Made by a program: the position numbers and the translations under genes. The notes under the pieces are model-generated. The model was not told the DNA's origin and ran no database searches. It saw only the letters and a program-made list of their open reading frames with translations. 64,000 nucleotides of DNA from positions 96,001 to 160,000 of IMG/VR virus record IMGVR_UViG_3300044846_004119. One strand, written 5' to 3'. Positions 1-64,000 of this stretch are shown piece after piece. This DNA comes from a virus. Positions within the stretch are counted from its first letter, which is position 1. Each line of letters starts with the position of its first letter.

Positions 1-585
1 AAAGAAAGTCCAAAAGTTTTAGGTCTTGATGTGTCAACTCGAACAATCGGTGTTGCATTATTTGATATACAAAGTAGAGAATTATTAGAATTAACTCACG
101 TATCACCAGTTCCAAAACCAAAAGAAGAGTCTAAAATTAAGGAATTATTACTTAAGAGTGATATTTTTAGAAATAAGTTAATTGAATATAAAGACTTAGG
201 TATTGTTAAGGTTATTATTGAAGAACCATTATTAAATTCAAATAATGTTTATACTATTAGTATTTTATTAAGATATAATACCTTAATTACTAAAGAAATT
301 TATGATGTTTTAGGTATTGTACCTGAATTTATATCCACCTATAATTCACGTAAGTTTGCTTACCCTGAATTAGTTAGAGAAAACAACAAAAATAAGTTTG
401 TTTTATTTGGGGGATTCCCAAAAGACTGTGATAAAAAACAAATCATATGGGAACAAGTTGCTAAAAGAGAACCACAAATACAGTGGTTGTATACTCGAAA
501 CAATACATTAAAGAAAGAAAACTTTGACCAAACAGACGCCTATACTTGTGTATTAGGTTATATGAGACAAGAAAAACTTTGGTAA
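1..585 (+). CDS. RuvC-like Holliday junction resolvase, 5'-truncated by the window edge
   Basis: Frame is open from base 1 (KESPKVLGLDVSTRTIGVA). RNase H-fold acidic motifs LGLD, IIEEP and DQTDA. The ORF-track start at 31 omits the first catalytic motif. Confidence 0.75.
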   Translation, partial: KESPKVLGLDVSTRTIGVALFDIQSRELLELTHVSPVPKPKEESKIKELLLKSDIFRNKLIEYKDLGIVKVIIEEPLLNSNNVYTISILLRYNTLITKEIYDVLGIVPEFISTYNSRKFAYPELVRENNKNKFVLFGGFPKDCDKKQIIWEQVAKREPQIQWLYTRNNTLKKENFDQTDAYTCVLGYMRQEKLW

Positions 586-611
586 TATCGTATAAATAAC
601 CGATAATATAG

Positions 612-642
612 AATATCGTCTTTTTAGACGATATTTTTTTTT
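612..642 (+). terminator. Intrinsic terminator between convergent genes
   Basis: Perfect 10-bp stem AATATCGTCT/AGACGATATT, TTTT loop, followed by a T run. Confidence 0.75.
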
Positions 643-662
643 ACCTTAAAGTTTTGATTTAC

Positions 663-3600
663 TCAATTTTGAGCAGTAGTTGAGGTTATTATAATTGGAA
701 CACCACAGTTTGCGGTTGTTACTGTAAAAGAATAGTTTATTTCAAAAACTTGGTCAATAGATAATACAGAGTTGTTGTATGAACCAATACTTAATTGAGC
801 ATTCGAAATAAATCCGGTACAAAATGATGAAGGTACCATTGCCTGTAAATAAACCGATACCACAGCACCTGTTTGAACTGAAAAAGTATTTGAATAGACA
901 CCAGCAGCTAAGCTAGATTGAAACGTATATACTATAACACCATTAACTTTTATATTACCCGTTGTCCAAGAACAATAGGTTTTTGTGTGAGTGTAAGACA
1001 TGGTACAAGGTTGTGGTGTTACAGTTGTTGTTGTTGTTGTTGTTGGTGTTGCCGCCGCAGAACAAGCATTACAACTAGGGTATGTTGAGAAACCAGTGAA
1101 GTAATTACCAGACCAAGTAATTACATTTGTGTTTGGGGAAAATTGTCCCGGTGAACATAAGGAAGAGCCAATAAATTTCCAACACACCCCTGTAGTAGGG
1201 TTACGTAAAACATTCCCAACAATAGTTGTTGGTGTTGCCGGTACAGTTTGAACTAAGACCTGCAGGGTACTAGATGAATTGTTATTATTGTTAGTACAAT
1301 CTGTAAACACATAATAAGTTAAACATGGAGTTGGAGTTACGGTTGATGATGGTGTTGGAGGTAATCCTGATGTTACGGTAGGAGTTGGCGTTTGTGTTGG
1401 TGTTTGGGTTGGCGTATTTGTTGGTGTACTTGTTGGCGTAATAACACAGTTTAAACAATCACCTAAATTAGAAAAACCAAAAGGACCTGCAAGTAAATCC
1501 ATTTGGTTAATACCTATGATATCGTTGTTTACCCCAATATAACTCACACATTTTGACACACCATCAACAAGTGATTCAAAAACCATATATATTTCTATAT
1601 CAAGACCTGGAGTTGGGTTCTCAAGGACACTTGTTGTATAATACATACTACCATTAAAACAGTCTTGGAATTGTTTACTTGATGGACATTTAATTAAGTC
1701 ATTAACAGTATTAAATGTTACGTTTCCTAAAAAGTCACACGGTCTGTCAATTGCGGGTGTAGGTGTTGGTGTGGTTGTTACTGTAGGTGTTGGTGTTGGT
1801 GTAATAGAACTAATCGTTGCATCAACACTAACATTTGAACATACATTTATTGGTGTCTGAGTAGGTGTCTGAGTAGGTGTTGGGGTCTGAGTAGGTGTTT
1901 GCGTTGGAGTAGGAGTAAAGTCACAATCAAATAATGCCGTAAAGTCAACATCACACGGTAATGTAGGTGTTGGCGTTGGTGTAGGACAAATACCTGCAAG
2001 TAAATTGTCGTCACATAAATCAGGACAAATACTATAACAAGGTGATTTACCCGATAATAAACAAATACCACCTAAACTGGTCGATAAACACCATTGAGTG
2101 TTTGTCGTGTCATAATAAATAAATAATGAATTTAATGTACCAACCCAATAAAAATTAATACCATAAGCACCAACTCTTACGTAGTTATCGTCCCATAAGA
2201 CATTGCCCGTATCATATAAACAATAGTTTATTACCGTACAAAAACCTACAGGTATTGATGTTTCAGTTGGTGTTGGCGTTGGTGTTTCAGTTGGTGTAGG
2301 AGTATTTGTTGGTGTTTGGGTTGGAGTTTCGGTTGGTGTAGGAGTATTTGTTGGTGTTTGGGTCAGCCCATTTGTTGGCGTATTTGTTGGTGTTTCAGTT
2401 GGTGTTGGTGTTTGGGTTGGTGTATTTGTTGGTGTTTCAGTTGGAGTATTTGTTGGAGTTTCAGTTGGTGTTTGGGTTGGTGTTTCAGTTGGTGTTGGTG
2501 TTGGTGTTTCATTTGGGGTTGGAGTATTTGTTGGTGTAGGTGTATTTGTTGGTGTTTCAGTTGGCGTATTTGTTGGTGTTTCAGTATTTGTTGGTGTATT
2601 TGTTGGTGTTTCAGTATTTGTTGGAGTATTTGTTGGAGTATTTGTTGGTGTTTCAGTTGGAGTATTTGTTGGAGTATTTGTTGGGGTATTTGTTGGTGTT
2701 TCAGTTGGCGTTGGTGTAACTGTTGGTGTTGGAGTATTTGTTGGAGTATTTGTTGGTGTAGGTGTATTTGTTGGTGTTTCAGTTGGCGTATTTGTTGGTG
2801 TTACAGTATTTGTTGGGGTAACTGTTGATGTAGGTGTATTTGTTGGGGTATTTGTTGGGGTATTAGTCGGAGTTTGAGTCGGCGTTTGAGTCGGAGTATT
2901 TGTTGGAGTTACAGTATTTGTTGGAGTATTAGTTACAGTATTTGTTGGAGTATTTGTTGGAGTATTTGTTGGAGTATTTGTTGGTGTTTCAGTTGGAGTA
3001 TTTGTTGGAGTTACAGTGTTTGTTGGAGTATTAGTTGGCGTAGATGTTGGAGTTTCAGTTGGGCTTGGTGTAGGAGTATTTGTTGGAGTTATTGTATTTG
3101 TTGGTGTTACAGTATTAGTTGGAGTATTAGTTGGAGTATTAGTCGGTGTATTAGTTGGTGTATTTGTTGGAGTTACAGTATTAGTTGGCGTTATTGTATT
3201 TGTTGGTGTTGAAGTATTTGTTGGAGTATTAGTTGGAGTTGTTGTTGGTGTTGGTGGAGGATTTGTTGAGGTAAGAGTTGGGGTGGGTGTTGGAGTTTCA
3301 GTTGGACTTGGTGTAGGAGTATTTGTTGGAGTTACAGTATTTGTTGGTGTTGGTGTATTTGATGGTGTTGAAGTATTTGTTGGTGTTATTGTATTTGTTG
3401 GTGTTGATGTATTTGTTGGCGTTATTGTATTTGTTGGTGTTACAGTATTAGTTGGAGTATTAGTCGGCGTATTAGTCGGCGTATTAGTTGGAGTATTAGT
3501 TGGAGTTGGAGTTGGGGTTGGGGTTTGGGTTGGAGTGTTAGTTGGAGTTGGAGTTGGGGTAGGTGTTGGGCTAAGTGGTGGTGTACAATACCAACTTGGA

Positions 3601-4157
3601 GCATTACACATGTTTAGAGTAACAGTTACAGTTGAATAAGTTGCGTTAGTTTTAACGTCATTAATATATAAATATGGAATTGGGTTTAGTATATTAACAC
3701 ACATGTTGAATGTACCAGGCACCTCAAATGGGTATGATAAAGTTTCTCCAAGCTGACAATTATACATGTCAACAAATACTACTCCGTCAACTGCAGGGTC
3801 AGTATTACCTACGGCATCATTTAAGTCCTTAGAATCAATATAAATGTCAACACACGTACAAGTTGGTAATGGTATAATATTGGGACTTTGACATTTTGCC
3901 GTATGGTCGACCATACAAGCGGCACAACCACCTCCAGGTGTATACTCAAAATAGGTGTTAACACTATTATAGTGAGTCTCAACATAACCAGCAAGTTTGG
4001 CCTCCCAACATACATCATTTGTGTCATAATAAATTTTACCTGCAATAAACTCTGAGTTTGTAACTCCATCAATTGTTGGCGTACATGGCCTAATAATTAC
4101 TGCATTGTTAAAACAACATCTTAAAAATACTGTATTACATTCTGGTATTTGCGGCAT
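663..4157 (-). CDS. Large Pro/Thr-rich (mucin-like) protein with Cys-rich domains, probable virion surface or fibre protein
   Basis: 1164-aa ORF. About 440 aa of [16 protein letters not shown] repeats flanked by Cys-rich beta-type segments. TATTTAT motif upstream (4195-4201). Confidence 0.75.
2250..3575 (-). repeat. Coding low-complexity tandem repeat (about 12-bp units such as GTATTTGTTGGA on + strand)
   Basis: Degenerate 6/12-bp units encoding Pro-Thr-Asn-Thr type repeats. Shorter tracts near 1770-1990 and 1330-1440. Confidence 0.95.
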
Positions 4158-4347
4158 TTATTTTAGTTTTTTTGTTATATGGTTATCTCAGTCTATAAAT
4201 ACCTTTAAGGTTCTTTTTATTTTTAAAAAAAATTGTAATACAAATAACGTTTTTTACAAATTTCTCACTTAACCCAACGTAAATTTGTTGTATATTAATT
4301 AATTTCATATTCCATTCCTATAATAGTATCAATTTAGGTTTTAATGG

Positions 4348-4563: not shown

Positions 4564-4648
4564 TGAGATTTCTTTTTAGATAAATATAATCAGAGCCAAA
4601 AACTTGTGAAGGTTGATTAACTTAATATTTTTAATTATTATGTGTTAT

Positions 4649-5551
4649 ATGTCAGACGATAAAGAAATTTTATTAGAATTACTTAGGGAAATCCTTGGTG
4701 ATGAAAAACAACATTATGAGTCTAAAGGGCAAATCGCGTTCGACTGTGTAATATGTGATGAAGATAGACATAAAGGTAATTTAGAGGTTAACTACTTACA
4801 TCACGTATATAAATGCTGGAGTTGTGGTGACGTTAATAATACTAAAGGACCTCTTGGTAAATTATTTGACCAATTTGGAAATAAAAAACAAAAAAAAGTC
4901 TATAAACTACTACAACCCGAAGAGTTTAAACCCAAAGAAGAAAAATTTCAAAAATTAAGACTACCTGAAAGTTTTACTTTATTTAAGGACTCAAGTACCG
5001 TTTATCCTGTTAGAAGACAAGCCTACAACTACTTAAAGAACCGTGGTATTGGTGATGATATTATTGAAAAATATGGTATTGGATTTTGTGATAATGGTTC
5101 CCATAAAGGTAGAATTATTGTACCATCGTATGATAAGAAAGGTGAACTAACTTATTATATCGCAAGAAGTTGGGACCCAAACACACGAGCTAAATATAAA
5201 AATCCACAAGCGGAAAAAGATAAAATAATCTTCAACGAACACTTAATTGATTGGAAAAAAGATATATTTTTAGTTGAGGGTGTTTTTGACGGGTTTTTCC
5301 TACCAAATAGTATTGCAATGTTGGGTAAACATATGAGTGAATTATTATTTAACTCGTTATACAATAAAGCAAAAAAAAATATAATAATTTCATTGGATGG
5401 CGACGCTTGGGACAATTCAACTAGATTATACGAAGAATTAAACGGTGGTGGTCTATATGGTAAAATAAAACTATTAAAATTACCAAAAGATAAAGACGTT
5501 TGTGATTTAAAAGGTGAAATTAACGACTATTATTATACTATGAAGTTTTAA
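4649..5551 (+). CDS. DnaG-like DNA primase (Zn finger plus TOPRIM)
   Basis: CVIC...CWSC zinc finger, YIARS, FLVEGVFD and ISLDGDA TOPRIM motifs. Start taken at the ATG of MSDDKE (track start 4613). Confidence 0.8.
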   Translation: MSDDKEILLELLREILGDEKQHYESKGQIAFDCVICDEDRHKGNLEVNYLHHVYKCWSCGDVNNTKGPLGKLFDQFGNKKQKKVYKLLQPEEFKPKEEKFQKLRLPESFTLFKDSSTVYPVRRQAYNYLKNRGIGDDIIEKYGIGFCDNGSHKGRIIVPSYDKKGELTYYIARSWDPNTRAKYKNPQAEKDKIIFNEHLIDWKKDIFLVEGVFDGFFLPNSIAMLGKHMSELLFNSLYNKAKKNIIISLDGDAWDNSTRLYEELNGGGLYGKIKLLKLPKDKDVCDLKGEINDYYYTMKF

Positions 5552-5552
5552 T

Positions 5553-6751: not shown

Positions 6752-6770
6752 AAAATAACTATATTTTATT

Positions 6771-6863: not shown

Positions 6864-6864
6864 A

Positions 6865-7101: not shown

Positions 7102-7102
7102 G

Positions 7103-7324: not shown

Positions 7325-7328
7325 TAAT

Positions 7329-7667: not shown

Positions 7668-7680
7668 ATAAATTAAAACT

Positions 7681-14284: not shown

Positions 14285-15085
14285 ATGAAAGAAAAAAGCT
14301 CATCAATTTCAATTAACCAAGAAGAGATACAAATATATCTTAAGGACATTCGTAAAATAAAAGTTATGACTCCTGAAAGGGAGAGAGAACTTGCAAAGAT
14401 GATAGCTACTGAGGGTATTACCCAAAGAGAAAAAGATGCAATTCACAAAGAACTTTTAGAAGGTAATTTACGTTTTGTAATTACAGTGGCAAAACAATAT
14501 CAAAATCAAGGATTAGATTTTCCTGATTTAATAGCCGAAGGTAATTTAGGGCTAATGAAAGCCATTAATAATTTTGATTGGTCTAAAAACCTTAGATTTA
14601 TTTCTTATGCGGTTTGGTGGGTTAAACAATCAATCTTACAGTCTTTAAATGACAACTCAAGAACAATTAGATTACCTGTTAATGTTGTTCAAGATTTACA
14701 TCGAGCAAAAAAAGAGGTTGAATCTAATGGTGCTCAACTAGATGATAAATTCCAAAGGTTACCATCGATGATTGATTTGGATATGAATATTAACGAAGAT
14801 GGTGATACTTTAATTGATATTATTAAGAATGACCAAGCGGAGATGCCTGATGAGATATTTAATAGTAAGGATATGTTAAAGTCAAAACTATTAAATCTTC
14901 TTGATTTTTTAGATGAAAGAGAAAAAGTGATTATTGAAGATTATTTTGGATTAACAGGGACACCAAGAACTTTAGAGGATATAGGTGGTGATTTTAACTT
15001 AACAAAGGAGAGAGTTCGTCAGATAAAACAAAAGGCTTTAAGGAAAATAAGAAATGAAAGTGATTGTTTATACGATTATATGTAA
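14285..15085 (+). CDS. Sigma70-family RNA polymerase sigma factor, Bacteroidota RpoD-like
   Basis: NLRFVITVAKQYQNQG, DLIAEGNLGLMKA, RFISYAVWWVKQSI, RTIRLP, region 4 TLEDIG...TKERVRQI. Confidence 0.92.
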   Translation: MKEKSSSISINQEEIQIYLKDIRKIKVMTPERERELAKMIATEGITQREKDAIHKELLEGNLRFVITVAKQYQNQGLDFPDLIAEGNLGLMKAINNFDWSKNLRFISYAVWWVKQSILQSLNDNSRTIRLPVNVVQDLHRAKKEVESNGAQLDDKFQRLPSMIDLDMNINEDGDTLIDIIKNDQAEMPDEIFNSKDMLKSKLLNLLDFLDEREKVIIEDYFGLTGTPRTLEDIGGDFNLTKERVRQIKQKALRKIRNESDCLYDYM

Positions 15086-19282: not shown

Positions 19283-19319
19283 ACTGAAATATTTAGATAT
19301 TTATATTAAAAACAAGAAA

Positions 19320-20867
19320 ATGAAAAACACAAATAACAAATACCTTGATAATTTGGTCGCTAGATTGGTTAAAGAAACCTTAGAGGAAAGAACCGATGAG
19401 TTAACTACCAAGATAAATGAATTAGGTGGTATGGATGATGGTCATCCTAAATTTGGTAAGTTAAATTTAAATAAAATGTCAGATGAAGACTTAAATGACT
19501 TAATGAGTTCTAATGTTGAAGGTGATGACGACGACTATAAAGACCGAAGTGCGTATAAACCATATTATGGTGAAGAAGATGGTGACGATGATTTCCAAGA
19601 CGATGATTTCCAATACAATGGTGACATTGACAATGACTTTGATAATGATGAGGAATTAGACGAATCATCAGAAGTATGTGAATGTGGTGGTGGTATGTAT
19701 GAAGGTATTTGTGAAGAATGTGGTTATAGTAAAGTAGACGAAGGAATTGATGATGAAGAAGACCTTAATGGTAAATTTGATTATGTTGAGGAAGAAGTTG
19801 ATTTTGAAGATGAGGAAGAAATTGAAGACGAGACTCAATCAGAAGATAAAGAGGCTTGCAAGTACCATATGGATAATTTTGGTCCTGAGGACAAAAGAAC
19901 ACAACAGTTCTGTGGTTCAAATAAAATGGGTTTAAACAAATTTAAATTCTCAATGAATGAAAGATTAAAAGGTCGACAAAGAAATATTGACAAAAACAAA
20001 AATGGTAAAATTGATTCTGAAGATTTTGAAATGTTAAGAAAAGGTGAGACTAAAGAAGGTAAAATGAATGAGAAATTAAAAGGTCGACAAAGAAATATTG
20101 ACAAAAACAAAAATGGTAAAATTGATTCTGAAGATTTTGAAATGTTAAGAAAAGGTGAGACTAAAGAAGGTAAAAAATCTGTTAAACTTTCTGAGAACGA
20201 AATGATTGATTTAATAGAAAAACTTGTTAGAGAAGAAAATGCTGGCAAAAAACAAACTAATAATATTAAAAGTGCCGGAAAACCTAAAGGACTTACAAAA
20301 TACGAACAAATTCACACTAAAGATGGTAAAGAAAATGATAACTATCTTAAGGATGTTTCTAAAAAAATGAAAGATTATTTAAAAGACGGTTCTAAAGGTG
20401 ATTTTGATATGAACCCTAAAATGTTTCCTAAAGGAAATGGTGAATTAGCAACAATGAAAAAGAAAGCATATATCCCATCAACTGCGGTTGAGGACTACGT
20501 TGACAACTTTACGGCTGCTGCGTTAGAAAATTTAGATTACGATGGTATCCATGCAAATGAAGAATGGGTAACAGATAACATCGAAGGTTCTTCAAGAACA
20601 GGTAATAACCCTGAATGGGCTAACACGGGGGAATCTGATGTGAACAAAAAACGTAACAAAATCAGAAAAGATAATATGTTGGCTAAACTTAAGAGAAAGG
20701 CCTACAACAAATCACCACAACCAGTTGTTAACGATACTGCGGGTGAAGATAAAGGTAGTGTGATTATGGCTAAATTAGAGTCAACTGAACCAAAACAAGC
20801 GAAACAAATTAATGAAGAGTTTGATAGAATGAAATCTTTAATAGGTTACAATCAAAAAACTCAATAA
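19320..20867 (+). CDS. Acidic, probably prohead core or scaffold-like protein with duplicated EF-hand-like repeat
   Basis: D/E-rich N-half, CECGG..CEECG, two DKNKNGKIDSEDF loops. Start at the ATG after TATTTAT (19298-19304), track start 19251. Confidence 0.6.
   Translation: MKNTNNKYLDNLVARLVKETLEERTDELTTKINELGGMDDGHPKFGKLNLNKMSDEDLNDLMSSNVEGDDDDYKDRSAYKPYYGEEDGDDDFQDDDFQYNGDIDNDFDNDEELDESSEVCECGGGMYEGICEECGYSKVDEGIDDEEDLNGKFDYVEEEVDFEDEEEIEDETQSEDKEACKYHMDNFGPEDKRTQQFCGSNKMGLNKFKFSMNERLKGRQRNIDKNKNGKIDSEDFEMLRKGETKEGKMNEKLKGRQRNIDKNKNGKIDSEDFEMLRKGETKEGKKSVKLSENEMIDLIEKLVREENAGKKQTNNIKSAGKPKGLTKYEQIHTKDGKENDNYLKDVSKKMKDYLKDGSKGDFDMNPKMFPKGNGELATMKKKAYIPSTAVEDYVDNFTAAALENLDYDGIHANEEWVTDNIEGSSRTGNNPEWANTGESDVNKKRNKIRKDNMLAKLKRKAYNKSPQPVVNDTAGEDKGSVIMAKLESTEPKQAKQINEEFDRMKSLIGYNQKTQ
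19953..20174 (+). repeat. Near-perfect 111-bp in-frame tandem duplication
   Basis: Units 19953-20063 and 20064-20174 differ at 2 nt and encode MNE[RK]LKGRQRNIDKNKNGKIDSEDFEMLRKGETKEGK. Confidence 0.95.
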
Positions 20868-25361: not shown

Positions 25362-25410
25362 ATAATGGATTATTTCTTAATTCTGAATATTTATATTAAA
25401 AACATTTAAA

Positions 25411-38220: not shown

Positions 38221-39369
38221 ATGAAAGGAATGAAACTTAATGAGTCTGAATTAAAAGACAGGATATTTCAAATTTATAAAGAGGAACAATATAAGATTCT
38301 TGAAGAAAAATGGAACAAATTATCTAAAGAAGATAAAATATTTGTTTTTGAATTTGCAAAAAAAATATACACTGAACAAACCAAGTTAATAAAAGAATCT
38401 AAATGGTATAATACTCTTGGTGATGTTGTCGGTATCTTTGACCCAACAGGTATTGTTGATATTGTTAATGGTATTAGTTATTGGAGACAAGGTGATAAAT
38501 TATATGCAATTCTTTCATTTGTTTCGGCAATCCCTTATTTAGGTGACCTTATCGCTAAACCTGTCATTGGTGTTATGAAATTAGGTGGTGGAGCCGCTAA
38601 AGCGTTTAAAGCAGCAACTTTAACTGGCGATGCCGTTAAAATTGCTGGTACGGCAAAAAGAGCTGGTGGACCTATTGCTAAGATGGTTGAGACTGCTCCA
38701 ACTTGGGGTGAGAAATTAGTGACCGCTTTAAAAGGGTCTATTGGCCGAGTTCCTTTGTTAGGTTCTGGCTTAGTAAAAGTTATTGAAGAGTACGTCCAAA
38801 TTTTTGGTAAAGCCGGAAAAGAAATGAAAGCGGGAACTGAAATTGGTAAAGGTATTGTAAAAAGTGAAAAGGCGTTAAGCGCTGTTGAAAAAGAAGAATT
38901 ATTAAAACAAATGAGTAAAGACCAATCTTTCAGAGGGTTTAGAGATTTAGGCACTGGAAAAAATAGTTGGTTAAGTTTTATGAAATCGGATGCAAGTTTA
39001 GGCGCTAAATTTTATGCGGGGGTTCCTAGAATTTTTGGTGGTAATCCTGCAACAAGGTCTTTGATGAAAAGAACTAAATTTTATGCGGGGTTTTTAGATT
39101 GGTTAGGTGTTGGAAATTTTGTTGGTCCTGATGAGCTTGAAAAAATGTACCCTGACGTTGAAAAACAGTATGAACAATACGCTCAATTACCCGAATCACA
39201 AAATTTATGGAATCAGGAGTTTGCCTCAGGACAAACAACACAAACTACTGTAGCGTCCGAGTTACCATCATTGTCTACTGCAAAACAATCAACATCAACT
39301 GCGGTTAAAACAGATGCATTCACATCATTAATTAGTTCACTATTAGGTGGGGGAAAAGCGTTAGTATGA
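38221..39369 (+). CDS. Tagged protein with pre-toxin TG-like domain and Gly/Ala-rich amphipathic region
   Basis: MKLNESEL tag, LGDVVGIFDPTGIVDIVNGISYWRQGDKLYAILSFVSAIPYLGD. Confidence 0.6.
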   Translation: MKGMKLNESELKDRIFQIYKEEQYKILEEKWNKLSKEDKIFVFEFAKKIYTEQTKLIKESKWYNTLGDVVGIFDPTGIVDIVNGISYWRQGDKLYAILSFVSAIPYLGDLIAKPVIGVMKLGGGAAKAFKAATLTGDAVKIAGTAKRAGGPIAKMVETAPTWGEKLVTALKGSIGRVPLLGSGLVKVIEEYVQIFGKAGKEMKAGTEIGKGIVKSEKALSAVEKEELLKQMSKDQSFRGFRDLGTGKNSWLSFMKSDASLGAKFYAGVPRIFGGNPATRSLMKRTKFYAGFLDWLGVGNFVGPDELEKMYPDVEKQYEQYAQLPESQNLWNQEFASGQTTQTTVASELPSLSTAKQSTSTAVKTDAFTSLISSLLGGGKALV

Positions 39370-40772
39370 AAAACTTACTAAAAGAAAGTGGTATCAGAGA
39401 TATCAATAAGTTAGCTAAACGTTATTCTAAAGCTGAAATTTATTTTCACCAAGATTTGGATGGCGTAACAACCGCACTTGCGATGAAAAAATACCTTGAA
39501 GACAATGGTATTAAAGTTGTTGATGCTCACGTTATTCAATACGGGGATAAAGAGTTCTCGGTAAAGAAGAATGACGCTCAAGGTGATATTATGCCAGTAC
39601 TTGTGGATTTTGCTCATGGTAAACCAATGTTTGTTATCCATACAGACCACCACGATAGACAAGCGGGTGCGGAAGACACTAAATCAACTTCATTTAGAAG
39701 TTCACGTTCAAATGTTGAAACAATATCCCAGGTGGTATCACCTAATGAAATATTCTCACCTGAAGATATTCAATTAATATCTATGGTTGACTCAGCTAAT
39801 TACGCGGCGAACGAAGTAACGGTTGACCAAGTAATAAATTATTTATTCAAATTAGATAAAGATAAATCTTTGGGTAAAAACAAAACTGCCTTAGGTTTAG
39901 TTGCTAATAAGTTATTATTGGCGTTTAAAAATAAACCAGGGTTTTTAGAAGAACTTGTTATGGTTGGAACCCCATCACTTATGAATCTTGTTACTAACAT
40001 AAAAAGAATCATGATTGAAAAAGGTTACGCTACCGTACCCGAATTACAGAAAAACAAAGAAGGTTATATTGACCAAATGAAAAACCACCATAATGTTAAA
40101 ATTGAAGGTAACATTATTGTTCAATACGGAGGTGGTAGTATGATGAAACCTGGTTCTTATGATAGATACACGCCCTTCAAAAATAACCCTGACGCTGATT
40201 TCTTAGTTATTGCTTGGCCATTAGGTTTAGTTCAAGCGTCTTGTAATCCTTATAAAAAAGAACGTGAGTTAAAAGGTGTTAACTTAGGTGAGATTGCTCA
40301 GGAAGTACTTGCTAAATGGGAGACTCAATTACAAGAAAGACAAATACCGTTATCAACAATTAAATGGATTTCTGAAGGTTCAAAAGGATTTGGTCCTGAA
40401 TCAGTTGGGTTTACCTTTAAAGATTTTGTTGCGTTATATGGTAACAATTTTAAAACAATGGAGAATGGTAAAAAACATTTAACTCAAATTGGTAAAATGA
40501 TGGAAATTCCTTTTACTGAATTAAGCGAGGAAGAAATGAAAATGTTAGATGGTGTCACAATTAATGCTTGGGATTTAATTCAAGCTAATAGTGGTGGACA
40601 TAAATGTATCACGAACATTTCGGGGCTTAGTTATTTAGGTAGGTCTAAAAGACCGCCAGATGGAAAGTACAAGTATAATGCTGAGTCAGATGATTCTCCT
40701 TATGTGAAGTTTACTAAAATGGTTCAAAAAGAATTGGTAAATGTGTTACAGTCTAAAATTAATGAAGGTTAA
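39366..40772 (+). CDS. DHH/DHHA1-family phosphoesterase
   Basis: HQDLDG, VLVDF, HTDHH, MVDS and C-terminal SGGH. ATGA-coupled to the upstream gene. Confidence 0.7.
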   Translation: MKNLLKESGIRDINKLAKRYSKAEIYFHQDLDGVTTALAMKKYLEDNGIKVVDAHVIQYGDKEFSVKKNDAQGDIMPVLVDFAHGKPMFVIHTDHHDRQAGAEDTKSTSFRSSRSNVETISQVVSPNEIFSPEDIQLISMVDSANYAANEVTVDQVINYLFKLDKDKSLGKNKTALGLVANKLLLAFKNKPGFLEELVMVGTPSLMNLVTNIKRIMIEKGYATVPELQKNKEGYIDQMKNHHNVKIEGNIIVQYGGGSMMKPGSYDRYTPFKNNPDADFLVIAWPLGLVQASCNPYKKERELKGVNLGEIAQEVLAKWETQLQERQIPLSTIKWISEGSKGFGPESVGFTFKDFVALYGNNFKTMENGKKHLTQIGKMMEIPFTELSEEEMKMLDGVTINAWDLIQANSGGHKCITNISGLSYLGRSKRPPDGKYKYNAESDDSPYVKFTKMVQKELVNVLQSKINEG

Positions 40773-46064: not shown

Positions 46065-46084
46065 TTAAATCAATATTTATTTTT

Positions 46085-47272
46085 ATGAATAAACGAGAAA
46101 TTCTTAACGATTTAATTAAAAAAATAATTTCATGTAATACTCAACATGAACTTAAAGAAATTGTTAAAGATATTAATGATTTTATTAATGATTATTCTAT
46201 TGTCAATAATTCTAATGAGTATAAGAGGCTCAAAAATGCCGTTGGAATTATGAGAATAAAACTAAAAAAAGATTTTAAGATTGATGAGTCAAAAACAATT
46301 CGTGTTACTGAGTTTGACTTAGTTAAAATTGTTAAATTAATTATTAAAGAACAACTTGAAGGTCAAGGAGAAAATCCTTTGTCGGAAAAAGAGATTAGGT
46401 TATTCAAATATCTTAATAAAAATAAACAAGATATGGGTAACCAATCTAAAATGTTAGCTTTTGTTAAAACCATGATGCCTTTTGTGGGGAGACCTGAATC
46501 TGATGCAAGATTCTATTACGAAATTTATACCGCGAACTACAGACCTGATGGTGATTACGAGAATTTAGATAAGACAACTTTCAGAAACTTCAAAGAGTTT
46601 AAACAAAGAAGAACGCCAAACAATAACGCGTACCAATTCAGTAGCGCTAAAATTCCTTTTAAAGGTTCTAATATTGAAGGGTATTGGGATGTTAATAGAA
46701 AAAATGAATGGTATTATGTTGTTAAGTCTTATGGTTGGTATCCAGTTTATTTATTCATTAACAATCAATGGTATGTAGTTAGTAATACCTATTCATCATC
46801 AACATCTAAACAAATGTCACACGCTAATCCTGTAAGATATAATTCAGGTTTAGATGCTAAAGTTATTAGTGTAACAAAGGAAGAAATCCAAAATCTTATT
46901 AACGGAAAAAGTTTAGATGATGTTAAATCCGAAAGAGTAACTAATTTTGGTGATAAATTTGCTAGTTCTTTAATTGGTACTAAAAAATTATTAACTATTG
47001 ATTTTGGATGGGGTGATAACAGAAAGAAAGTTAATTATACTATCACAGACGTTAAGAATGACGGTGGTAAAATTAAAATTGACATCACTATTAATAAAGC
47101 AGGTACCGTTGAAGGTACAAATAAGATGGTTGTTAATCCTGAAGGTTATGTACACCCAAGCCCTTTCTCAGAAGATTTGGAAAATGGTATTGAGTTAAAA
47201 ATAATTTCTGATAATAAAGATTATTTAACTGATGATAATACTGAGTTTACTTTTCATCACCCCTCAAAATAA
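46085..47272 (+). CDS. Hypothetical protein with internal copy of the shared tag
   Basis: KTIRVTEFDLVKIVKLIIKEQ, TATTTAT 4 nt before the ATG. Confidence 0.65.
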   Translation: MNKREILNDLIKKIISCNTQHELKEIVKDINDFINDYSIVNNSNEYKRLKNAVGIMRIKLKKDFKIDESKTIRVTEFDLVKIVKLIIKEQLEGQGENPLSEKEIRLFKYLNKNKQDMGNQSKMLAFVKTMMPFVGRPESDARFYYEIYTANYRPDGDYENLDKTTFRNFKEFKQRRTPNNNAYQFSSAKIPFKGSNIEGYWDVNRKNEWYYVVKSYGWYPVYLFINNQWYVVSNTYSSSTSKQMSHANPVRYNSGLDAKVISVTKEEIQNLINGKSLDDVKSERVTNFGDKFASSLIGTKKLLTIDFGWGDNRKKVNYTITDVKNDGGKIKIDITINKAGTVEGTNKMVVNPEGYVHPSPFSEDLENGIELKIISDNKDYLTDDNTEFTFHHPSK

Positions 47273-48350: not shown

Positions 48351-48428
48351 AATGTTTTTAATGTAAATATAAGTATTTTGTTCACATGATAAATAAAAAA
48401 TATTTCTTAACCCAATATATTTATTAAT

Positions 48429-54154: not shown

Positions 54155-54532
54155 TTACCAAGTTTTACACGCCCAATATCTTGCTTTCCATCTTGGACCT
54201 GGTGTCTCACAATGATGACGAGCTCTAAATGATTTTCTTCTTGCTGGGTTATTCTTTTTTATCACCATTCTTTTTCCTTTAGCGGATTTACCGCCAAATC
54301 CAAAGTTTACTTTAACAACATTACCTTTGTCGTTTTTAACGTAAACTTTAGATTTCTTTACATCACCTTGCATTATCTTACCTAATTGAACTTTACGTCC
54401 TTGGTATTCTGCTTCCGTTAATAAGTCAGTAACTTTAAATTCAGTCTCCTCGACTGACCCATAAAAACTATCAACCATTTCTTTTAGGTTAAACAGTTTA
54501 TTGTATTGTGATTCTGTGATTATGAATTTCAT
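54155..54532 (-). CDS. Tagged, highly basic protein
   Basis: MKFIITESQY tag, LLTEAEYQGRKV, RRKSFRARHHC...ARYWAC.TW. Confidence 0.7.
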   Translation of the reverse strand: MKFIITESQYNKLFNLKEMVDSFYGSVEETEFKVTDLLTEAEYQGRKVQLGKIMQGDVKKSKVYVKNDKGNVVKVNFGFGGKSAKGKRMVIKKNNPARRKSFRARHHCETPGPRWKARYWACKTW

Positions 54533-54885
54533 TTTTTTTCGTAGTGTGTCATTGTTGGTTTATTACCTTTCCCTATTTTAGGGTCTTTCTTTTCAGCTCT
54601 TCTCTTTTGTTGAGTCATTGCTTTTTTTTCATCTTTATCGTATGATGAAGCAATCTTTGGTGTTTCAGATGAAACTTTTTTTGAGGGGCGACATTTTGGA
54701 TATGATTTTCCGTCGGCATCCTTTCTTCCACAAGGTGGATGTTTTCCGTCAACTTTTTTACTTACATCAACCCACTTCTCTTTAAACCAGTTTCTTAAAT
54801 CTTCATTAACATTTTTGTTTTTTTCAGAAGTGGTTAAACCGTTAAGTAGTTTTTTGTATTGAGATTCTGTTAAAATAATTTTCAT
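54529..54885 (-). CDS. Tagged, highly basic protein
   Basis: MKIILTESQY tag, EDLRNWFKEKWVD, PPCGR, YPKCRP. Confidence 0.7.
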   Translation of the reverse strand: MKIILTESQYKKLLNGLTTSEKNKNVNEDLRNWFKEKWVDVSKKVDGKHPPCGRKDADGKSYPKCRPSKKVSSETPKIASSYDKDEKKAMTQQKRRAEKKDPKIGKGNKPTMTHYEKK

Positions 54886-54927
54886 ATTAATAAATATATG
54901 AATATTTATAAATCAAACAATATAAGC

Positions 54928-58317: not shown

Positions 58318-58329
58318 GTATTTATTAAT

Positions 58330-59043: not shown

Positions 59044-59063
59044 AAAAAAGGAATTATTCCCTT

Positions 59064-59351: not shown

Positions 59352-59425
59352 ATCTTTAATTATTTATATTGCTAAGATACGCATTTATTCTTAAACTACA
59401 AACTATTTATTAAAAAAATTTAATC

Positions 59426-60550: not shown

Positions 60551-60552
60551 AA

Positions 60553-60969
60553 ATGACAGACGATTTAATTGCGTACCCAAGCTCATTTATGCCTAAATTG
60601 AATATTAACGTAATCTTCAAGGAGAACCCTAATTACCCACAAATGAAAGAATATTTTAATATGATGGGTTATGGTTTTCTTGCTCCCGAATTTAAAACAA
60701 TTTTCTTAGATGGTGAAAACTTTATTGGTGAAAACGCATTCACCTTTGACGATATGAAATTCGTTGAGGCTCATGAAGTGTCTCATCTTATATTAGGACA
60801 TAATGGTCCTCGTTCAGAAGAAGATGAGATTGAGGCCGACTTAGGTGCGTACATTCTACTAACTAAATATAATATGTCAACAGAACGATTGAAGGACGAG
60901 TTTGAACACAGACACGGAGTTCCTTTTTCTGAAGAATTATTGGATAAAGTAAATGATAGAATGTTATGA
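60553..60969 (+). CDS. HExxH zinc metallopeptidase-like protein
   Basis: AHEVSHLILGH...EIEAD. Confidence 0.7.
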   Translation: MTDDLIAYPSSFMPKLNINVIFKENPNYPQMKEYFNMMGYGFLAPEFKTIFLDGENFIGENAFTFDDMKFVEAHEVSHLILGHNGPRSEEDEIEADLGAYILLTKYNMSTERLKDEFEHRHGVPFSEELLDKVNDRML

Positions 60970-61433
60970 GAGTAATAGTAAATGAAGATGTATATAATAA
61001 TTTATCTCTGAAGTTTAGTAATGAGTTTAGAAGACGTATTCCCCTTCTTGATAAATTAATAAAGGTTTTATTACCTCAAATGTTTCCTTGTGACTTTGAT
61101 GACAAGGATGATTTTGTTAGAGGGGTTATGGATGAAATATCTTGGTTAGTAAGGAATGAAAAGTATGGATTAGATATGGTTGACGTTGGTGACATATCAG
61201 ATTATTTATTTTCAATTAAGAAAGGTTATTTAATCCAATACTATAAAGAACATTGTGAACCCTCTGAAAATGATATTAACGAAATGATTAAATTAGACAT
61301 TAAAGTTGGTGACATCCTAATGGGTGGTAAATTTAAAAACAAAAAAGTTGTTGTCAAAGATATTGGTAAAAACGAAAAAGGTGACATAACTATCAACGGA
61401 AAACCATTACTTAGATTTAGAATCCAAAAATAA
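60966..61433 (+). CDS. Tagged protein with C-terminal SH3/KOW-like module
   Basis: MRVIVNE leader, INE then LDIKVGDILMGGKFKNKKVVVK. Confidence 0.55.
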   Translation: MRVIVNEDVYNNLSLKFSNEFRRRIPLLDKLIKVLLPQMFPCDFDDKDDFVRGVMDEISWLVRNEKYGLDMVDVGDISDYLFSIKKGYLIQYYKEHCEPSENDINEMIKLDIKVGDILMGGKFKNKKVVVKDIGKNEKGDITINGKPLLRFRIQK

Positions 61434-61449
61434 TTATTATCTTTGACAT

Positions 61450-61530
61450 ATGGATAAATTAATTATTGCTCTCACATTATGGTTTTGTATTGTTTATTTC
61501 GGTAGAAGTAAGAAAAAGTACGAAGATTAA
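61450..61530 (+). CDS. 26-aa membrane peptide, probably leaderless
   Basis: MDKLIIALTLWFCIVYFGRSKKKYED, 4 nt after TATCTTTG (61438-45). Confidence 0.45.
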   Translation: MDKLIIALTLWFCIVYFGRSKKKYED

Positions 61531-61616
61531 CTTCAACTGAATATCTAATTCATTTTCCATCCAACAAAGATAAGAAAATAGTTGTTATAAACAAAATAAT
61601 ATTCTATCTTTGCTAT

Positions 61617-62237: not shown

Positions 62238-62268
62238 TATAAAAAATCTTATTTACAATTATTTTTCA

Positions 62269-63096
62269 CTAATCTTTGTCTTTACAGTGACGCGAAGTAT
62301 GAATCATTACGATTATGTTGATAGGTAAAAAACTTTTAATGTACGACGACAACGTTGTTTCATTCATAGAATAGGACATCAAAACCAATAAAATGTATTC
62401 ATCCAAATTGGTTTTAATACAGATTATATCACAAACGTCATCAGAGTTCTCAAAATAAGAAAGAGCAATATCCTCAATTAGTTTACCGTACTTACCTTGG
62501 TCAGGATTACTATCTCTGTTAAACTTTTTCATAGGTTTTTCTTCAGATTCTTTAACCGTATTTACATCTTCAGTATCAATTTCATAAGTTCCATCAACAC
62601 CTTTTTCCCACATACCAACAACGGTGCCTTCATTACCTTTCAAGTTTTTGTTTTTACTTTTACGATTAAATTTAGAATCAACACTATTAATAAATGGATA
62701 TAATAATGATTTTTCCCATTTTCTAATACCAAGTTCGATAGGTCCGTTATATTCACCAGCACTAATTAAAGTTGTATTTTCATTAAGATAAAGACCAACA
62801 TTGTATTCTTTAAGACCAATCCAAATAGATTTTGGTTTTAGGTTTGTTTTACTACGAATCCATTTAGCGACATTAATAGCAAATTCCTTATCTATTTTAA
62901 CAGGAACAAAACTTTTAACTTTATTGATGAAATCAAGACCAACATTAACAATACCATTTTCATAATGAAAAAGTTCCTCATTGTCATACTCAATTCTGTA
63001 TGTTGGGTTATACGAATATATTCTCGTAACAGACAACTCTGAGAAGAGACTATCTAATAATAAGAAAAACTGAGGACCATTAATGATTACGTTCAT
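62269..63096 (-). CDS. Multi-segment hypothetical protein
   Basis: 275-aa ORF, TATTTAT 5 nt before the ATG. Confidence 0.6.
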   Translation of the reverse strand: MNVIINGPQFFLLLDSLFSELSVTRIYSYNPTYRIEYDNEELFHYENGIVNVGLDFINKVKSFVPVKIDKEFAINVAKWIRSKTNLKPKSIWIGLKEYNVGLYLNENTTLISAGEYNGPIELGIRKWEKSLLYPFINSVDSKFNRKSKNKNLKGNEGTVVGMWEKGVDGTYEIDTEDVNTVKESEEKPMKKFNRDSNPDQGKYGKLIEDIALSYFENSDDVCDIICIKTNLDEYILLVLMSYSMNETTLSSYIKSFLPINIIVMIHTSRHCKDKD

Positions 63097-63139
63097 AAAC
63101 TATAAATATTAGTTATTACTAAATATACGGATTACTTAT

Positions 63140-63170
63140 TTTGGTAATGTTAATAATTTTTGTATATTTG
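63140..63170 (+). promoter_or_regulatory. Bacteroidota-type housekeeping promoter
   Basis: TTTG(63140-43), 19 nt, TATATTTG(63163-70). Confidence 0.6.
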
Positions 63171-63208
63171 TAATGTAGTCAGTTATTAATCTTTAAAAAA
63201 ATATAGTT

Positions 63209-63283
63209 ATGGAATTAAGTGTGGGTTTATTAGGTATTTGTATATTAATTTTAATTGCCGTGTGCGATTTAAATAAAAAATAA
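63209..63283 (+). CDS. 24-aa membrane peptide
   Basis: MELSVGLLGICILILIAVCDLNKK downstream of a host-type promoter. Confidence 0.4.
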   Translation: MELSVGLLGICILILIAVCDLNKK

Positions 63284-63349
63284 TTAAACTTATGGTCATT
63301 TTAAATATATTTATATTGTGTAAATAATTCATAAAAAAAAATAGAAAAA

Positions 63350-63958
63350 ATGACAATTACAGAACAAAGATTACAAGAATTAACCAACGTTGCTCCAACA
63401 GTATCAGTCAAAATGGATATGGAGTGGTTGAGTTCAACAACAAACACCGCAGACTTCCAAATTCGGTTAACAAACACTGGTACATCAGTAATTAAATTAA
63501 ACGCTTTGATTATTCGTGGTGTTCATTCACCAAAGATAACAACAGGAACTATAACATGGAAAGCATTAAATGACAATACTATTCCAGAATGGTTAGGATG
63601 GCCTAAAAAAGGAACAACCAACTTACCATATATCTCAGGACAAAGGAAATTAAATTTCTCTTCAGCAACAAATATCTTTACCAATGAAACATCTCCTATC
63701 ATACCAACGGGAACAGGAGTAGTAGTTGGAACTTTTAGAGTTTCAACAACAACAACATGGAACCCAAATAGTAACTTTGGTTTTGTATGGGAAATGACAA
63801 CAGGTGGAGTTGTTGGTTATGTAAATTTTGAAACACAGTCTTCAACTACATCACTACCAGTTGGTTTTATGCATTACGGACCAACAACAAATACAAATAT
63901 AGGTAAATGTTTAACAGTAACTGCCCCAAGTGTACAACTATTAAACCCAAAGTTATAA
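63350..63958 (+). CDS. Tagged beta-rich protein
   Basis: MTITEQRLQEL leader, Thr/Gly-rich strands, TATTTAT at 63308-14. Confidence 0.6.
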   Translation: MTITEQRLQELTNVAPTVSVKMDMEWLSSTTNTADFQIRLTNTGTSVIKLNALIIRGVHSPKITTGTITWKALNDNTIPEWLGWPKKGTTNLPYISGQRKLNFSSATNIFTNETSPIIPTGTGVVVGTFRVSTTTTWNPNSNFGFVWEMTTGGVVGYVNFETQSSTTSLPVGFMHYGPTTNTNIGKCLTVTAPSVQLLNPKL

Positions 63959-64000
63959 CAACAATATTCTATTAGCATTAAAACCAAATTGTTTGTTTAC

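Follow-up and report, generated by a model that had tools for sequence, protein, structure and literature searches.

Why should proteins that resemble each other nowhere else begin with the same few residues? This question is raised by the window analysed here, a stretch of 64,000 nucleotides (positions 96,001 to 160,000 of IMG/VR record IMGVR_UViG_3300044846_004119), which comes from a 177-kb fragment, 60% complete, of an uncultured T4-like jumbo phage whose host is probably Flavobacterium. Many unrelated ORFs in it each start with a short peptide from a small interchangeable set, and since these peptides contain the motif at which the T4-type head protease cuts, the tagged proteins are probably loaded into the capsid and trimmed there, as happens to Alt and the internal proteins in T4. 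For comparison we used nine near-complete leader-bearing genomes of 281-322 kb; G003 is a complete relative.

A small set of interchangeable leaders

A first-pass annotation of the window had described one peptide tag on unrelated proteins. This claim holds, and the exact pattern given there occurs at four N-termini against 0.02 expected, while a looser regular expression applied to the 195 ORFs of the contig matches 10 N-termini against 0.3 expected (300 shuffles, maximum 3). The single pattern resolves, however, into at least three leader classes, A (MKIIITESQ[LF]), B (MKKVIRLTESDLTRIVKRVINE) and C (MNLQENIxRIKEMMGL), and shorter helix-only forms. Profile HMMs of the three classes separate real from shuffled sequence, with scores of up to 46 bits against at most 7 in a fivefold shuffled proteome, and find 16 leader genes in the contig and about 39 in G003, nearly all at residues 2-6. 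A short helix-E motif, which forms a weak class, is likewise more frequent at N-termini than expected (12 against 6.3 in G000, 57 against 12.7 in G003). When the class B motif was searched for without requiring an ATG, all 139 of 139 matches had an in-frame ATG 4-5 residues upstream.

The proteins behind the leaders are diverse. Mutual BLAST of the 16 cited window proteins (named by start position, with w for window) gave similarity confined to the leaders, between residues 1-15 of w54532 and w54885 and between residues 2-23 of w16932 and 308-329 of w19251, so the cargos are unrelated. In IMG/VR each leader class occurs at no fewer than about 120 loci, and among the matches listed there are at least 407 cargos in at least 169 unrelated BLAST clusters, spanning such disparate Pfam families as Phage_lysozyme, HD, SET, Pterin_4a, Zn ribbon and L5_gp82. 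A single cargo can be found behind A, B or C depending on the phage. The leaders are virus-specific and virtually absent from prokaryote genomes: 185,579 of these (596 Gb) gave no match to class B and three to class A. Finally, the Leu, Arg, Ser and Thr codons of the leaders vary freely, and identical 12-residue peptides differ at 5.3 of 36 nucleotides, so conservation acts on the peptide. The tag is thus portable, strictly N-terminal and under peptide-level selection.

Leader-bearing genes in the window

About 10-13 of the 16 examples in the first-pass annotation stand (Table 1). The robust ones are 16932, 43278, 54532, 54885, 32407 and the internal copy in 46085. The leader of 16932 is kept in G003 and IMG/VR orthologues (all 41 of its 41 database homologues are unnamed metagenomic proteins), and seven orthologues of 43278 keep A-type leaders. 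The G003 orthologue of 32407 starts with MKKVIRLTESDL, a canonical class B leader, and others have helix-only leaders. In an AF2 model of the 32407 protein (mean pLDDT 80), residues 1-24 have pLDDT below 50 and the folded cargo, for which Foldseek returned no match, begins at about residue 27; the leader is thus modelled as a low-confidence region detached from the cargo.

Table 1. Features in the window. Genes are named by start position; slashes follow the Glu of [LIV]-x-E-type sites.
Feature	Position (nt)	Strand	Leader or site	HMM match	TATTTAT
TATTTAT late-promoter-like motif, example	54890..54896	-	4 nt before ATG of 54885		
Other TATTTAT copies	19298, 25388, 32396, 38200, 43258, 45599, 46074, 48418, 59404, 63308	+			
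TATTTAT copy	47994	-			
16932, 102 aa	16932..17240	+	class B-like, MKKIVKLNESELINFIKKFIAE/E, residues 1-24	B, 34.0 bits, residues 5-24	
19320, multi-module acidic/basic protein	19320..20867	+	helix-type N-terminal, ..NLVARLVKE/TLEE/		19298-19304
Internal leader-like copy in 19320	20172-20237	+	VKLSE/NEMIDLIE/KLVRE/		
25411, 458 aa	25411..26787	+	short helix (weak class), ..LLSNLIVE/Q		25388-25394
32407, 454 aa	32407..33771	+	class B-like, MANKVRLTE/QGLQQLIKRIVE/E	B, 8.7 bits	32396-32402
38221, 382 aa	38221..39369	+	divergent, MKGMKLNE/SELKDRI..	B, only 3.4 bits	38200-38206
39366, 468 aa, DHH-like	39366..40772	+	short N-terminal, MKNLLKE/SG		
43278, 106 aa	43278..43598	+	class A, MAKDIIISE/KQLELL	A, 19.8 bits	43258-43264
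46085, 395 aa, two-module fusion	46085..47272	+	internal class B	B, 13.9 bits, residues 72-90	
Internal class B leader in 46085	46298-46354	+	TIRVTE/FDLVKIVKLIIKE/Q		
48879, 189 aa	48879..49448	+	A-like, MKLKITE/QQLHSINEFLAE/K	below A threshold	
54532, 125 aa	54155..54532	-	class A, MKFIITE/SQY	A, 23.4 bits	
54885, 118 aa	54529..54885	-	class A, MKIILTE/SQY	A, 21.0 bits	
59426, 374 aa	59426..60550	+	divergent A-like, MSYKRFLINE/LEKKDILKQYDLLVE/V		59404-59410
60966, 155 aa, two-module protein	60966..61433	+			
Junction in 60966	61254-61283	+	..NDINE/MIKLDIKVGD		

Other examples are supported through their orthologues. The cargo of 38221 sits behind canonical leader A, MKLIITESQF, in the L056 orthologue; orthologues of 59426 start with MGKILITEDEKKRILNLYGILKE/A, MKKLLITEDDKK..LLTE/A or MGKILITEDEKK..ILKE/A; those of 19320, whose ATG is favoured by the TATTTAT upstream, start with similar helix leaders; and those of 25411 have h-x-x-h-[IV]-[VL]-E at the same place, with ..LIVE[QN] conserved. 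Twelve orthologues of 39366 conserve [IL]-x-E then SG[IL]RD at residues 5-9, one of them with an added helix leader; this gene has no match in Pfam or PHROG, and its membership is tentative. In 48879, ITE at residues 5-7 is followed by LAE at 17-19 (an FLAE site), and distant homologues start MKIIITESQY. The N-terminus of 60966, MRVIVNE, is unsupported as a leader, and the gene is included for its INE/MIKLD junction: its second module is elsewhere a 63-residue gene with leader A, and residues 97-155 align to residues 6-62 of MKIIITEQQYKHITE/MIKLDIKVGD proteins. We no longer count 47980, the orthologues of which have unrelated N-termini, and 63350 and 45621 are uncertain. The cargo functions named earlier (pre-toxin-TG-like, DHH, Dps-like, LRR) found no confirmation in Pfam, which gave only DUF6878 and DUF5872.

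Most of the cited genes had also been placed behind or within operons led by TATTTAT; the motif lies within 80 nt upstream of 11 of them (19320, 25411, 32407, 38221, 43278, 45621, 46085, 47980, 54885, 59426 and 63350), and four more (48879, 54532, 60966 and 16932) follow a TATTTAT-preceded gene in the same operon, 48879 doing so behind 48429 (motif at 48418-48424). Across the genome, 67 of 151 copies fall in intergenic DNA, which makes up 5.3% of the sequence. It stands ahead of sheath, tube and fibre genes in G000, and in G003 of those for TerL, protease, scaffold and gp67-like proteins. The proposed co-occurrence of motif and tag is found in G003, where TATTTAT is commoner before tagged than untagged genes (odds ratio 3.6, p 3e-4), but is not significant in the 177-kb contig (p 0.24), which counts against capsid loading.

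Cleavage-type sites and module junctions

Each leader class has two [LI]-x-E sites at fixed positions. It counts against capsid loading that [LI]-x-E carries little information in a proteome so rich in Lys and Glu, about 24% of untagged proteins having such a site in the corresponding region. Beyond the residues fixed by the search, a second site, [LIVM]-x-E, appears at a fixed position. In class B its last residue is number 22 in 81 of 83 clusters, with E22 in all 102 of 102 DNA versions; a second site is found in 71% of class A and 88% of class C leaders against the 24% background (p 1e-8 and 1e-20, respectively). The ITE and LTE of the leaders are identical to gp21 sites proven in T4 Alt (PMC5694885).

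Cargo modules also start directly after [LIV]-x-E. In differing upstream contexts, the AEYQGRKV module is always preceded by L-[TN]-E, DLRxWFKEKW by [LV]-x-E and MIKLDIKVGD by I-[TN]-E, and acidic spacers stand ahead of basic modules. Thus 54532 (a PHROG 7595 match) consists of the leader, an acidic spacer, LLTE/ and the basic module AEYQGRKV..; in alignment A2, L38, E40 and A41 never vary, and hardly any change is seen from A41 on, while the part upstream is variable. In 54885, the leader and a spacer ending VNE/ precede a basic, Cys-rich DUF5872 module, DLRNWFKEKW.. (Pfam E 6.5e-12), which is preceded by [LV]-x-E in all relatives. In relatives the 54532 gene is fused behind the 54885 module, with its leader internal.

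The internal copies reported in 19320 and 46085 are supported, the former matching the w16932 leader by BLAST (54.5% over 22 residues, E 9e-4) and the latter matching the class B HMM. Residues 82-383 of 46085 match leader-starting proteins, while other proteins match residues 1-76 with their N-termini. As for the proposal that such copies are cleavage points, they do lie where modules meet that elsewhere form genes of their own; cleavage at these points is a prediction.

Head genes of the relatives

The first-pass annotation also suggested a search for a prohead protease. The head module and the protease are absent from the 177-kb, 60%-complete contig, and so we read both from relatives (51-72% sheath identity), from which a protease would be expected in the window's phage; this gap in the contig counts against capsid loading. 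Peptidase_S77, the gp21-type prohead protease, scored above cut-off in all nine near-complete leader-bearing genomes. The G003 protease has 33% identity to T4 gp21, keeps the ELNHP and SSRGxGSL motifs, and is encoded among TerL, portal, gp67/68-like, scaffold and gp23 capsid protein genes in T4 synteny. The capsid protein of the clade keeps [SYH]LINE/A in nine distinct versions (eight and that of G003). Adjoining the G003 capsid gene is a gene for a 432-residue protein that starts ..KKILRE/ATS and holds the DUF5872 module of w54885 as well as a class B leader in its interior (30 bits).

The class C leader resembles the scaffold C-terminal tail of relatives: in three of them FSRIKEMM[KR]KIK takes ranks 17-19 of 600,883 non-N-terminal windows scored with the class C matrix. 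The scaffold tail of G003 itself scores poorly (rank 91 of 90,367), which counts against capsid loading.

Comparison with known systems

Capsid targeting sequences of T4 were reportedly described by Mullaney and Black in 1996. In T4, the Alt, IPI, IPII, IPIII and gp24 proteins have N-terminal propeptides removed by the gp21 prohead protease (PMC9026906, PMC5694885, PMC3012670), which cuts after L/I-x-E (PMC9026906), in Alt at ITE-6 and LTE-619 (PMC5694885). Both systems put short N-terminal peptides (6-20 residues) ending L/I-x-E on otherwise unrelated late-gene proteins, and both have a gp21-type protease with T4-type scaffold, capsid and portal genes. Class A, MKIIITE/S, is close in form to the start of Alt, MELITE/; the class B LTE recurs at Glu65 of gp23 (FLTE/AEIGG) and at LTE-619 of Alt; and ..ILRE/ forms recall gp24, MAKINELLRE/ (LLRE/S). 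The clade differs in scale: against five such proteins in T4, it has about 40-60 tagged genes in each genome and no fewer than 169 cargo clusters. It also has three or more leader classes that can stand in for one another, with two conserved sites apiece; its leaders reach 24 residues and include an amphipathic basic helix, and there are internal copies and polyprotein-like fusions. For the clade, the system as a whole is predicted from sequence.

In the phiKZ-like giant phages phiKZ, 201phi2-1 and SPN3US, a diverged homologue of gp21 cuts the propeptides of ejection and inner-body proteins at S/A-x-E (PMC9026906, PMC5694885, PMC10052503). As predicted for the clade, many head proteins (about 20-50) undergo processing after Glu there, the propeptides have redundant sites, and the giant capsids hold a large protein cargo; however, these phages are of another lineage, and their propeptides are long (often >100 residues), lack a shared portable consensus and are cut at S/A-x-E rather than L/I-x-E. 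The P22 scaffold C-terminal helix and encapsulin cargo-loading peptides are cases in which a short terminal helix is enough to carry unrelated cargo into a shell of the HK97 fold. Class C resembles the scaffold tail of the relatives, and shell binding by the leaders is putative; those peptides are not removed by a protease, as the leaders are predicted to be, and encapsulin peptides are mostly C-terminal.

Alternative explanations

Several observations count against capsid loading. The leaders have no resemblance to the T4 IPIII targeting sequence, the number of tagged genes far exceeds that of T4, and the pterin dehydratase, HD and SET cargos are not obvious capsid passengers. The cargo modules of 54532 and 54885 also occur in podophages and archaeal viruses, and T7-like podophages are not known to have a prohead protease. 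The leaders could instead dock onto a shared partner other than the capsid interior, such as a different part of the virion, a phage assembly or factory in the cytoplasm, or a hub protein of the host, with [LI]-x-E as residues of a binding helix rather than protease sites. Portability, terminal position and peptide-level selection would suit any docking tag, as would the presence of enzymes with no known capsid role and of class C-type helices at the extreme C-termini of some proteins. We nevertheless consider this unlikely, since against docking stand two Glu-terminated sites at fixed positions in three otherwise different classes, their identity to proven gp21 sites, cargo modules that begin exactly after [LIV]-x-E, and a head-module gene that holds both a leader copy and a cargo module.

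That the leaders are pro-regions or degrons, which keep cargo inactive or time its proteolysis or unfolding without packaging, seems to us improbable. Protease-like sites and acidic spacers before basic modules, as in pro-proteins, would fit, and G003 encodes a Clp-like ATPase (685 residues) and an Hsp20-like protein beside its head genes, so that a Clp/Hsp100-like ATPase, or gp21 outside heads, could act on them; but T4 gp21 is active only inside proheads (PMC9026906), and the scaffold-tail similarity and the head-module copy point to the capsid. We give very little credence to a nucleic-acid-level feature without peptide function, whether the shared starts set the translation-initiation context of near-leaderless late mRNAs or serve as blocks of homology promoting the exchange of cassettes. 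The gap between TATTTAT and the ATG is often just 4 nt, so the first codons would lie at the mRNA 5′ end, and the cargo flanked by leaders is exchanged rapidly (G003 conserves 5 of 16 tagged cargos, against 100 of 179 untagged genes, p 0.07). Against this, residues are fixed where synonymous sites vary, leaders have internal and C-terminal copies, and late genes with the same promoter (sheath, tube) lack a leader.

A predicted capsid-loading system

Portability, the [LI]-x-E sites, the relatives' gp21-type protease and the promoter motif shared with head and tail genes speak for the capsid loading that the first-pass annotation had proposed; prohead binding, cleavage, packaging and ejection of the tagged proteins are what we infer from them. 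TATTTAT-driven late genes would yield proteins with a leader in their first 7-24 residues, a short strand-like hydrophobic stretch and an amphipathic basic helix in classes A, B, C or the helix-only forms. The leader would dock the cargo on the core or shell of the assembling prohead, and a gp21-type serine protease would then cut after ITE, LTE, LQE or the second I-x-E at the helix end, freeing mature cargo within the head, to be ejected together with the DNA. Where a multi-module gene has internal leaders or [LIV]-x-E junctions, cutting there would release several small, mostly basic proteins. On these sequence grounds we lean, with modest confidence, towards the leaders being removable capsid-targeting propeptides of a T4-type head-assembly system, which would operate in these phages on a far larger scale than in T4.

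Leader classes in the source genome

The first-pass annotation had proposed that about 15 unrelated proteins of the window begin with one shared short peptide pattern. The pattern is far above chance, with 10 N-terminal matches to a loose regular expression compared with 0.3 in shuffles, and the cited proteins have nothing in common beyond their leaders. However, what was described as a single pattern splits into three leader classes plus shorter helix-only forms. Class A leaders read MK[IYLVF]IITESQ[LF], class B leaders MKK[VI]I[RK]LTESDLTRIVKRVINE, and class C leaders MNLQENIxRIKEMMGL or ..RILREE; the helix-only forms include ..LIVE/Q and ..ILRE/A, where the slash, here and below, marks the predicted cut point after a Glu. 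A check with HMMs found 16 leader genes in the contig that contains the window and about 39 in G003, its closest complete relative, with scores that reach 46 bits, whereas no score exceeds 7 bits in a proteome shuffled five-fold. The leader starts at residues 2-6 in nearly all genes found in this way. A chance origin of the leaders is ruled out by the shuffle controls.

Among the cited genes, which we name by their start positions in the window, 16932, 32407, 43278, 54532 and 54885 are solid examples, as is the internal copy in 46085. Genes 38221, 59426, 19320, 25411, 39366 and 48879 and the junction in 60966 are backed by orthologues with canonical or conserved leaders. Gene 47980 was not borne out as a tagged example, and 63350 and 45621 are counted neither as supported nor as failed. 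Pfam and PHROG scans gave no match for most of the window's cargos, that is, the protein parts after the leader, and all 41 of the database homologues found for the 16932 cargo are unnamed metagenomic proteins. In the AF2 model of 32407 (pLDDT 80), residues 1-24 form a detached, low-confidence helix ahead of a well-folded body, and a Foldseek search with the model found no PDB match at E <= 0.001; the model of 54532, with a mean pLDDT of 49, is unusable.

Positions of further features in the window and in related sequences
Feature	Sequence	Position	Strand	Description
Class C gene run	IMG/VR record, just past the window end	162981-168165		Six consecutive genes with the start MNLQE[NS]I, the last 675 aa long and multi-modular; border of the leader-rich region, which spans ~39-120 kb in G003
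Gene with a tandem duplication	Window	19320-20867	+	~34 aa; each copy with an EF-hand-like loop, DKNKNGKIDSEDF, and MNE/ sites on the flanks
Small basic Cys/Trp modules	Window	54155-54885	-	PHROG 7595; DUF5872
TATTTAT close to a start codon (examples)	Window	46074-46080, 48418-48424, 54890-54896		Motif ends 4 nt before the ATG
Sigma-70-like ORF	Window	14285-15085	+	266 aa; N-terminal region sigma-70-family-like by eye
Clp/Hsp100-like and Hsp20-like genes	G003	122555-125123 (L138:2555-5123)		685-aa ATPase gene and Hsp20-like gene, immediately upstream of the head module
Chromosomal leader ORF	Flavobacterium sp. MAG contig NZ_JAHEBT010000054 (L385)	4644-4814	-	56 aa, containing MKLIITESQFKRL, a class A leader
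ORF adjoining the chromosomal leader ORF	Same contig	4933-5514		35% identity to a phage ORF in locus L271

Interchangeable leaders on unrelated cargos

We searched IMG/VR with a back-translated pattern of each class, which yielded more than 119 loci per class, on contigs of up to 322 kb. The class B search pattern contained no start codon, and yet all 139 of the cases listed have an in-frame ATG 4-5 residues ahead of the motif. Among the matches listed, 407 leader-stripped cargos fall into at least 169 BLAST clusters, and at least four cargo clusters carry more than one leader class; in three phages, one and the same cargo is preceded by leader A, B or C. As the cargos are unrelated, a paralogous gene family is ruled out. 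Pfam domains recognised in class A cargos comprise lysozyme, HD, SET, pterin-4a dehydratase, zinc ribbon and L5_gp82, while the majority have no recognised domain. Tagged cargos tend to turn over faster between the contig and G003, although this is only a trend (p 0.07).

The Leu, Arg, Ser, Thr, Ile and Val codons of the leaders are freely variable, and identical 12-residue leader peptides differ on average at 5.3 of 36 nucleotides. Judged from these codons, conservation of the leaders acts on the peptide. Signal peptides of the Sec, Tat or lipoprotein type are ruled out, since the leaders have no hydrophobic core (at least 10 uncharged residues after a basic n-region), place Glu at residues 5-9 and carry charges throughout; the true lipoprotein and signal starts of the same genome differ from them in appearance.

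Judged by their distribution among sequences, the leaders are virus-specific. The class B leader has no match in 185,579 prokaryote genomes, and the three class A matches there are a mis-binned phage fragment, a chance match and a small ORF in a Flavobacterium MAG. The MAG contig that carries this ORF has 27% GC, like the phage, and the ORF is a hint of either Flavobacterium as host or gene exchange.

Source genome and head module

The IMG/VR virus record comprises 177,135 bp, of which the window covers positions 96,001-160,000; it has 29% GC and is about 60% complete by CheckV. Its genes include a T4-like tail sheath, tube and baseplate hub, a UvsX-like recombinase and a gp32-like SSB. Sheath identity to five relatives of 281-321 kb is 51-72%; the nearest of these, G003 (304 kb, 100% complete), was taken in full. 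The contig is collinear with G003 from 189k to 304k and then from 0 to 40k, so that the head module and the majority of the leader genes lie in the missing 40%. A tblastn search of 50,697 deposited phage genomes with the 25-aa class B leader and the window proteins found no leader-bearing cultured relative, and a sheath search of deposited phages returned distant T4-like phages only, with at most 32% identity.

A prohead protease gene had been called for as a check on the capsid proposal. Searches of the contig itself found neither this protease nor a gp23-type capsid protein, because the collinear head region is absent from it, but Peptidase_S77 scores above the Pfam cut-off in all nine of the near-complete leader-bearing relatives tested. 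The gene order in G003 is that of T4: TerL, portal (Portal_T4), two small genes in the gp67/68 position, protease (Peptidase_S77), acidic scaffold and capsid protein (Gp23). The protease has 33% identity to T4 gp21, the T4 prohead protease, and retains the ELNHP and SSRGxGSL motifs. For the G003 protein in the gp24 position, paralogy to gp23 is not detectable. The chaperone-like gene pair beside the G003 head module has no counterparts in the contig.

Protease-type sites in leaders and at module boundaries

T4 gp21 cleaves after L/I-x-E (PMC9026906), and the first [LI]-x-E site is ITE in class A, LTE in class B and LQE in class C. Furthermore, a second [LIVM]-x-E lies at a fixed distance, outside the residues fixed by the search, in 71-100% of clusters compared with a background of 24-27%, among the matches listed. 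In class B this site ends at residue 22 in 81 of 83 listed cargo clusters, with E22 kept in all 102 listed DNA versions. It is found at residues 15-16 or 20-21 in class A (71% compared with 24% of untagged proteins, p 1e-8), and further sites at residues 12-13 and 18-19 occur in class C (88% compared with 24%, p 1e-20), both among the matches listed.

Of these tripeptides, ITE and LTE are proven gp21 sites in T4. Class A resembles the N-terminus of T4 Alt, which reads MELITE, though peptides of this length do not allow homology to be tested statistically, and is unlike the T4 IPIII peptide. Alt is an enzyme that T4 packages and ejects; its processing sites are ITE-6 and LTE-619 (PMC5694885). 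The tetrapeptide ITES is common to the class A leader, T4 gp21 and T4 gp22, and TITES is present in the G003 scaffold. T4 gp23 contains FLTE/AEIGG and T4 gp24 MAKINELLRE/S; in the clade's capsid protein, [SYH]LINE/A is kept in nine distinct versions (eight plus that of G003).

Sites of this kind also precede conserved modules. In the 54532 family (alignment A2), the sequence is near-invariant from A41 (AEYQGRKV..), with L38, E40 and A41 invariant, and is preceded by a variable leader and acidic spacer. In other contexts the AEYQGRKV module follows MLNE/, LLNE/ or LLTE/, while DLRxWFKEKW follows VNE/, LKE/ or LQE/, and MIKLDIKVGD follows ITE/ or INE/. Genes 54885 and 54532 adjoin each other in the window, but relatives have them as one fused gene in which the second leader is internal; 46085, 60966 and 19320 are also fusions with leader-like junctions. 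The earlier idea that internal copies mark cleavage points of polyproteins thus fits at the level of sequence, although cleavage at the junctions is only predicted.

Homologues of the small basic Cys/Trp modules occur in phages of Pelagibacter, Roseobacter and Prochlorococcus, which belong to several morphotypes, and also in spindle-shaped viruses of Nitrosopumilaceae. In the T4-like Pelagibacter phage HTVC008M, a module of this type is likewise preceded by L-E-E/.

Late-promoter-like motif and other possible links to the head

The late-promoter-like motif TATTTAT is concentrated about 15-fold in intergenic DNA. It lies upstream of sheath, tube and fibre genes in the contig and of TerL, protease, scaffold and gp67-like genes in G003. 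Its proposed association with the tag is significant in G003 (20 of 39 tagged compared with 81 of 361 untagged genes, odds ratio 3.6, p 3e-4) but is not significant in the contig (p 0.24). The motif often ends just 4 nt ahead of the ATG, a spacing that suggests near-leaderless late transcripts, and its sequence suggests a late promoter whose two central bases are not those of T4's TATAAATA. The sigma-70-like ORF could be a candidate reader of the motif.

Adjoining the G003 capsid gene, whose product reads LINE/ATS, is a 432-aa gene that starts ..KKILRE/ATS and, further inside, holds a class B leader (30 bits) as well as the DUF5872 module of 54885. A leader-like sequence also occurs in the scaffold of three other relatives, where the C-terminal tail FSRIKEMM[KR]KIK ranks 17-19 of 600,883 non-N-terminal windows scored with the class C matrix. 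The G003 tail is a weak match (rank 91 of 90,367), a helix of this type also ends a few other proteins, and no co-variation between scaffold tail and leader was seen.

Interpretation and significance

That T4 uses targeting sequences, on five proteins, is textbook knowledge. The best-supported mechanism, and one that we consider slightly better than an even bet, is a T4-type system in which the leaders are propeptides that target cargo to the capsid and are trimmed off by the prohead protease, here enlarged to dozens of cargos in each genome. We infer binding, cleavage, packaging and ejection in the clade by analogy with T4, in which alone these steps are established. A review has suggested that T4-like phages may package varied proteins through targeting sequences (PMC9026906), and our literature searches, which included the leader strings, found no publication on these leaders.

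Several observations call for caution in the capsid reading: the information content of the cleavage motif is low, some cargos are odd as capsid passengers, podophages and archaeal viruses also carry homologues of the small basic cargo modules, and the head module is missing from the contig. The leaders could instead be a docking tag for a partner other than the capsid, which we consider unlikely, or a pro-region or degron, which seems more improbable still. A nucleic-acid-level signal in RNA or DNA is the least plausible and would be very surprising, given that synonymous sites of the leaders vary.

Building on capsid targeting, a broader scenario can be sketched tentatively, to which we give rather less than even credence. 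An uncultured clade of ~300-kb T4-related phages, probably infecting Flavobacterium and other Bacteroidota, would use a multi-class peptide address code to load about a tenth of its proteome into the capsid, with hundreds of fast-turnover cargo families, among them polyproteins that are cleaved into small basic modules. The cargos would dock by mimicking the scaffold tail and would then undergo gp21-type trimming and be ejected. If true, this set of injected proteins would exceed by a wide margin any other known in tailed phages, and would amount to a natural plug-and-play system for cargo loading.

Should the capsid reading prove wrong, there would still be a tag to explain that is virus-specific, interchangeable, strictly N-terminal and carried by at least 169 unrelated cargo families. 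If the leaders are capsid-targeting propeptides, the five-protein trick of T4 would be widened to dozens of passengers per virion in environmental jumbo phages. Short natural tags would then be available for packing foreign proteins into large capsids, and hundreds of uncharacterised proteins would become candidates for effectors that are ejected into the host, for example as factors against host defence, enzymes of host takeover or peptides that condense DNA.
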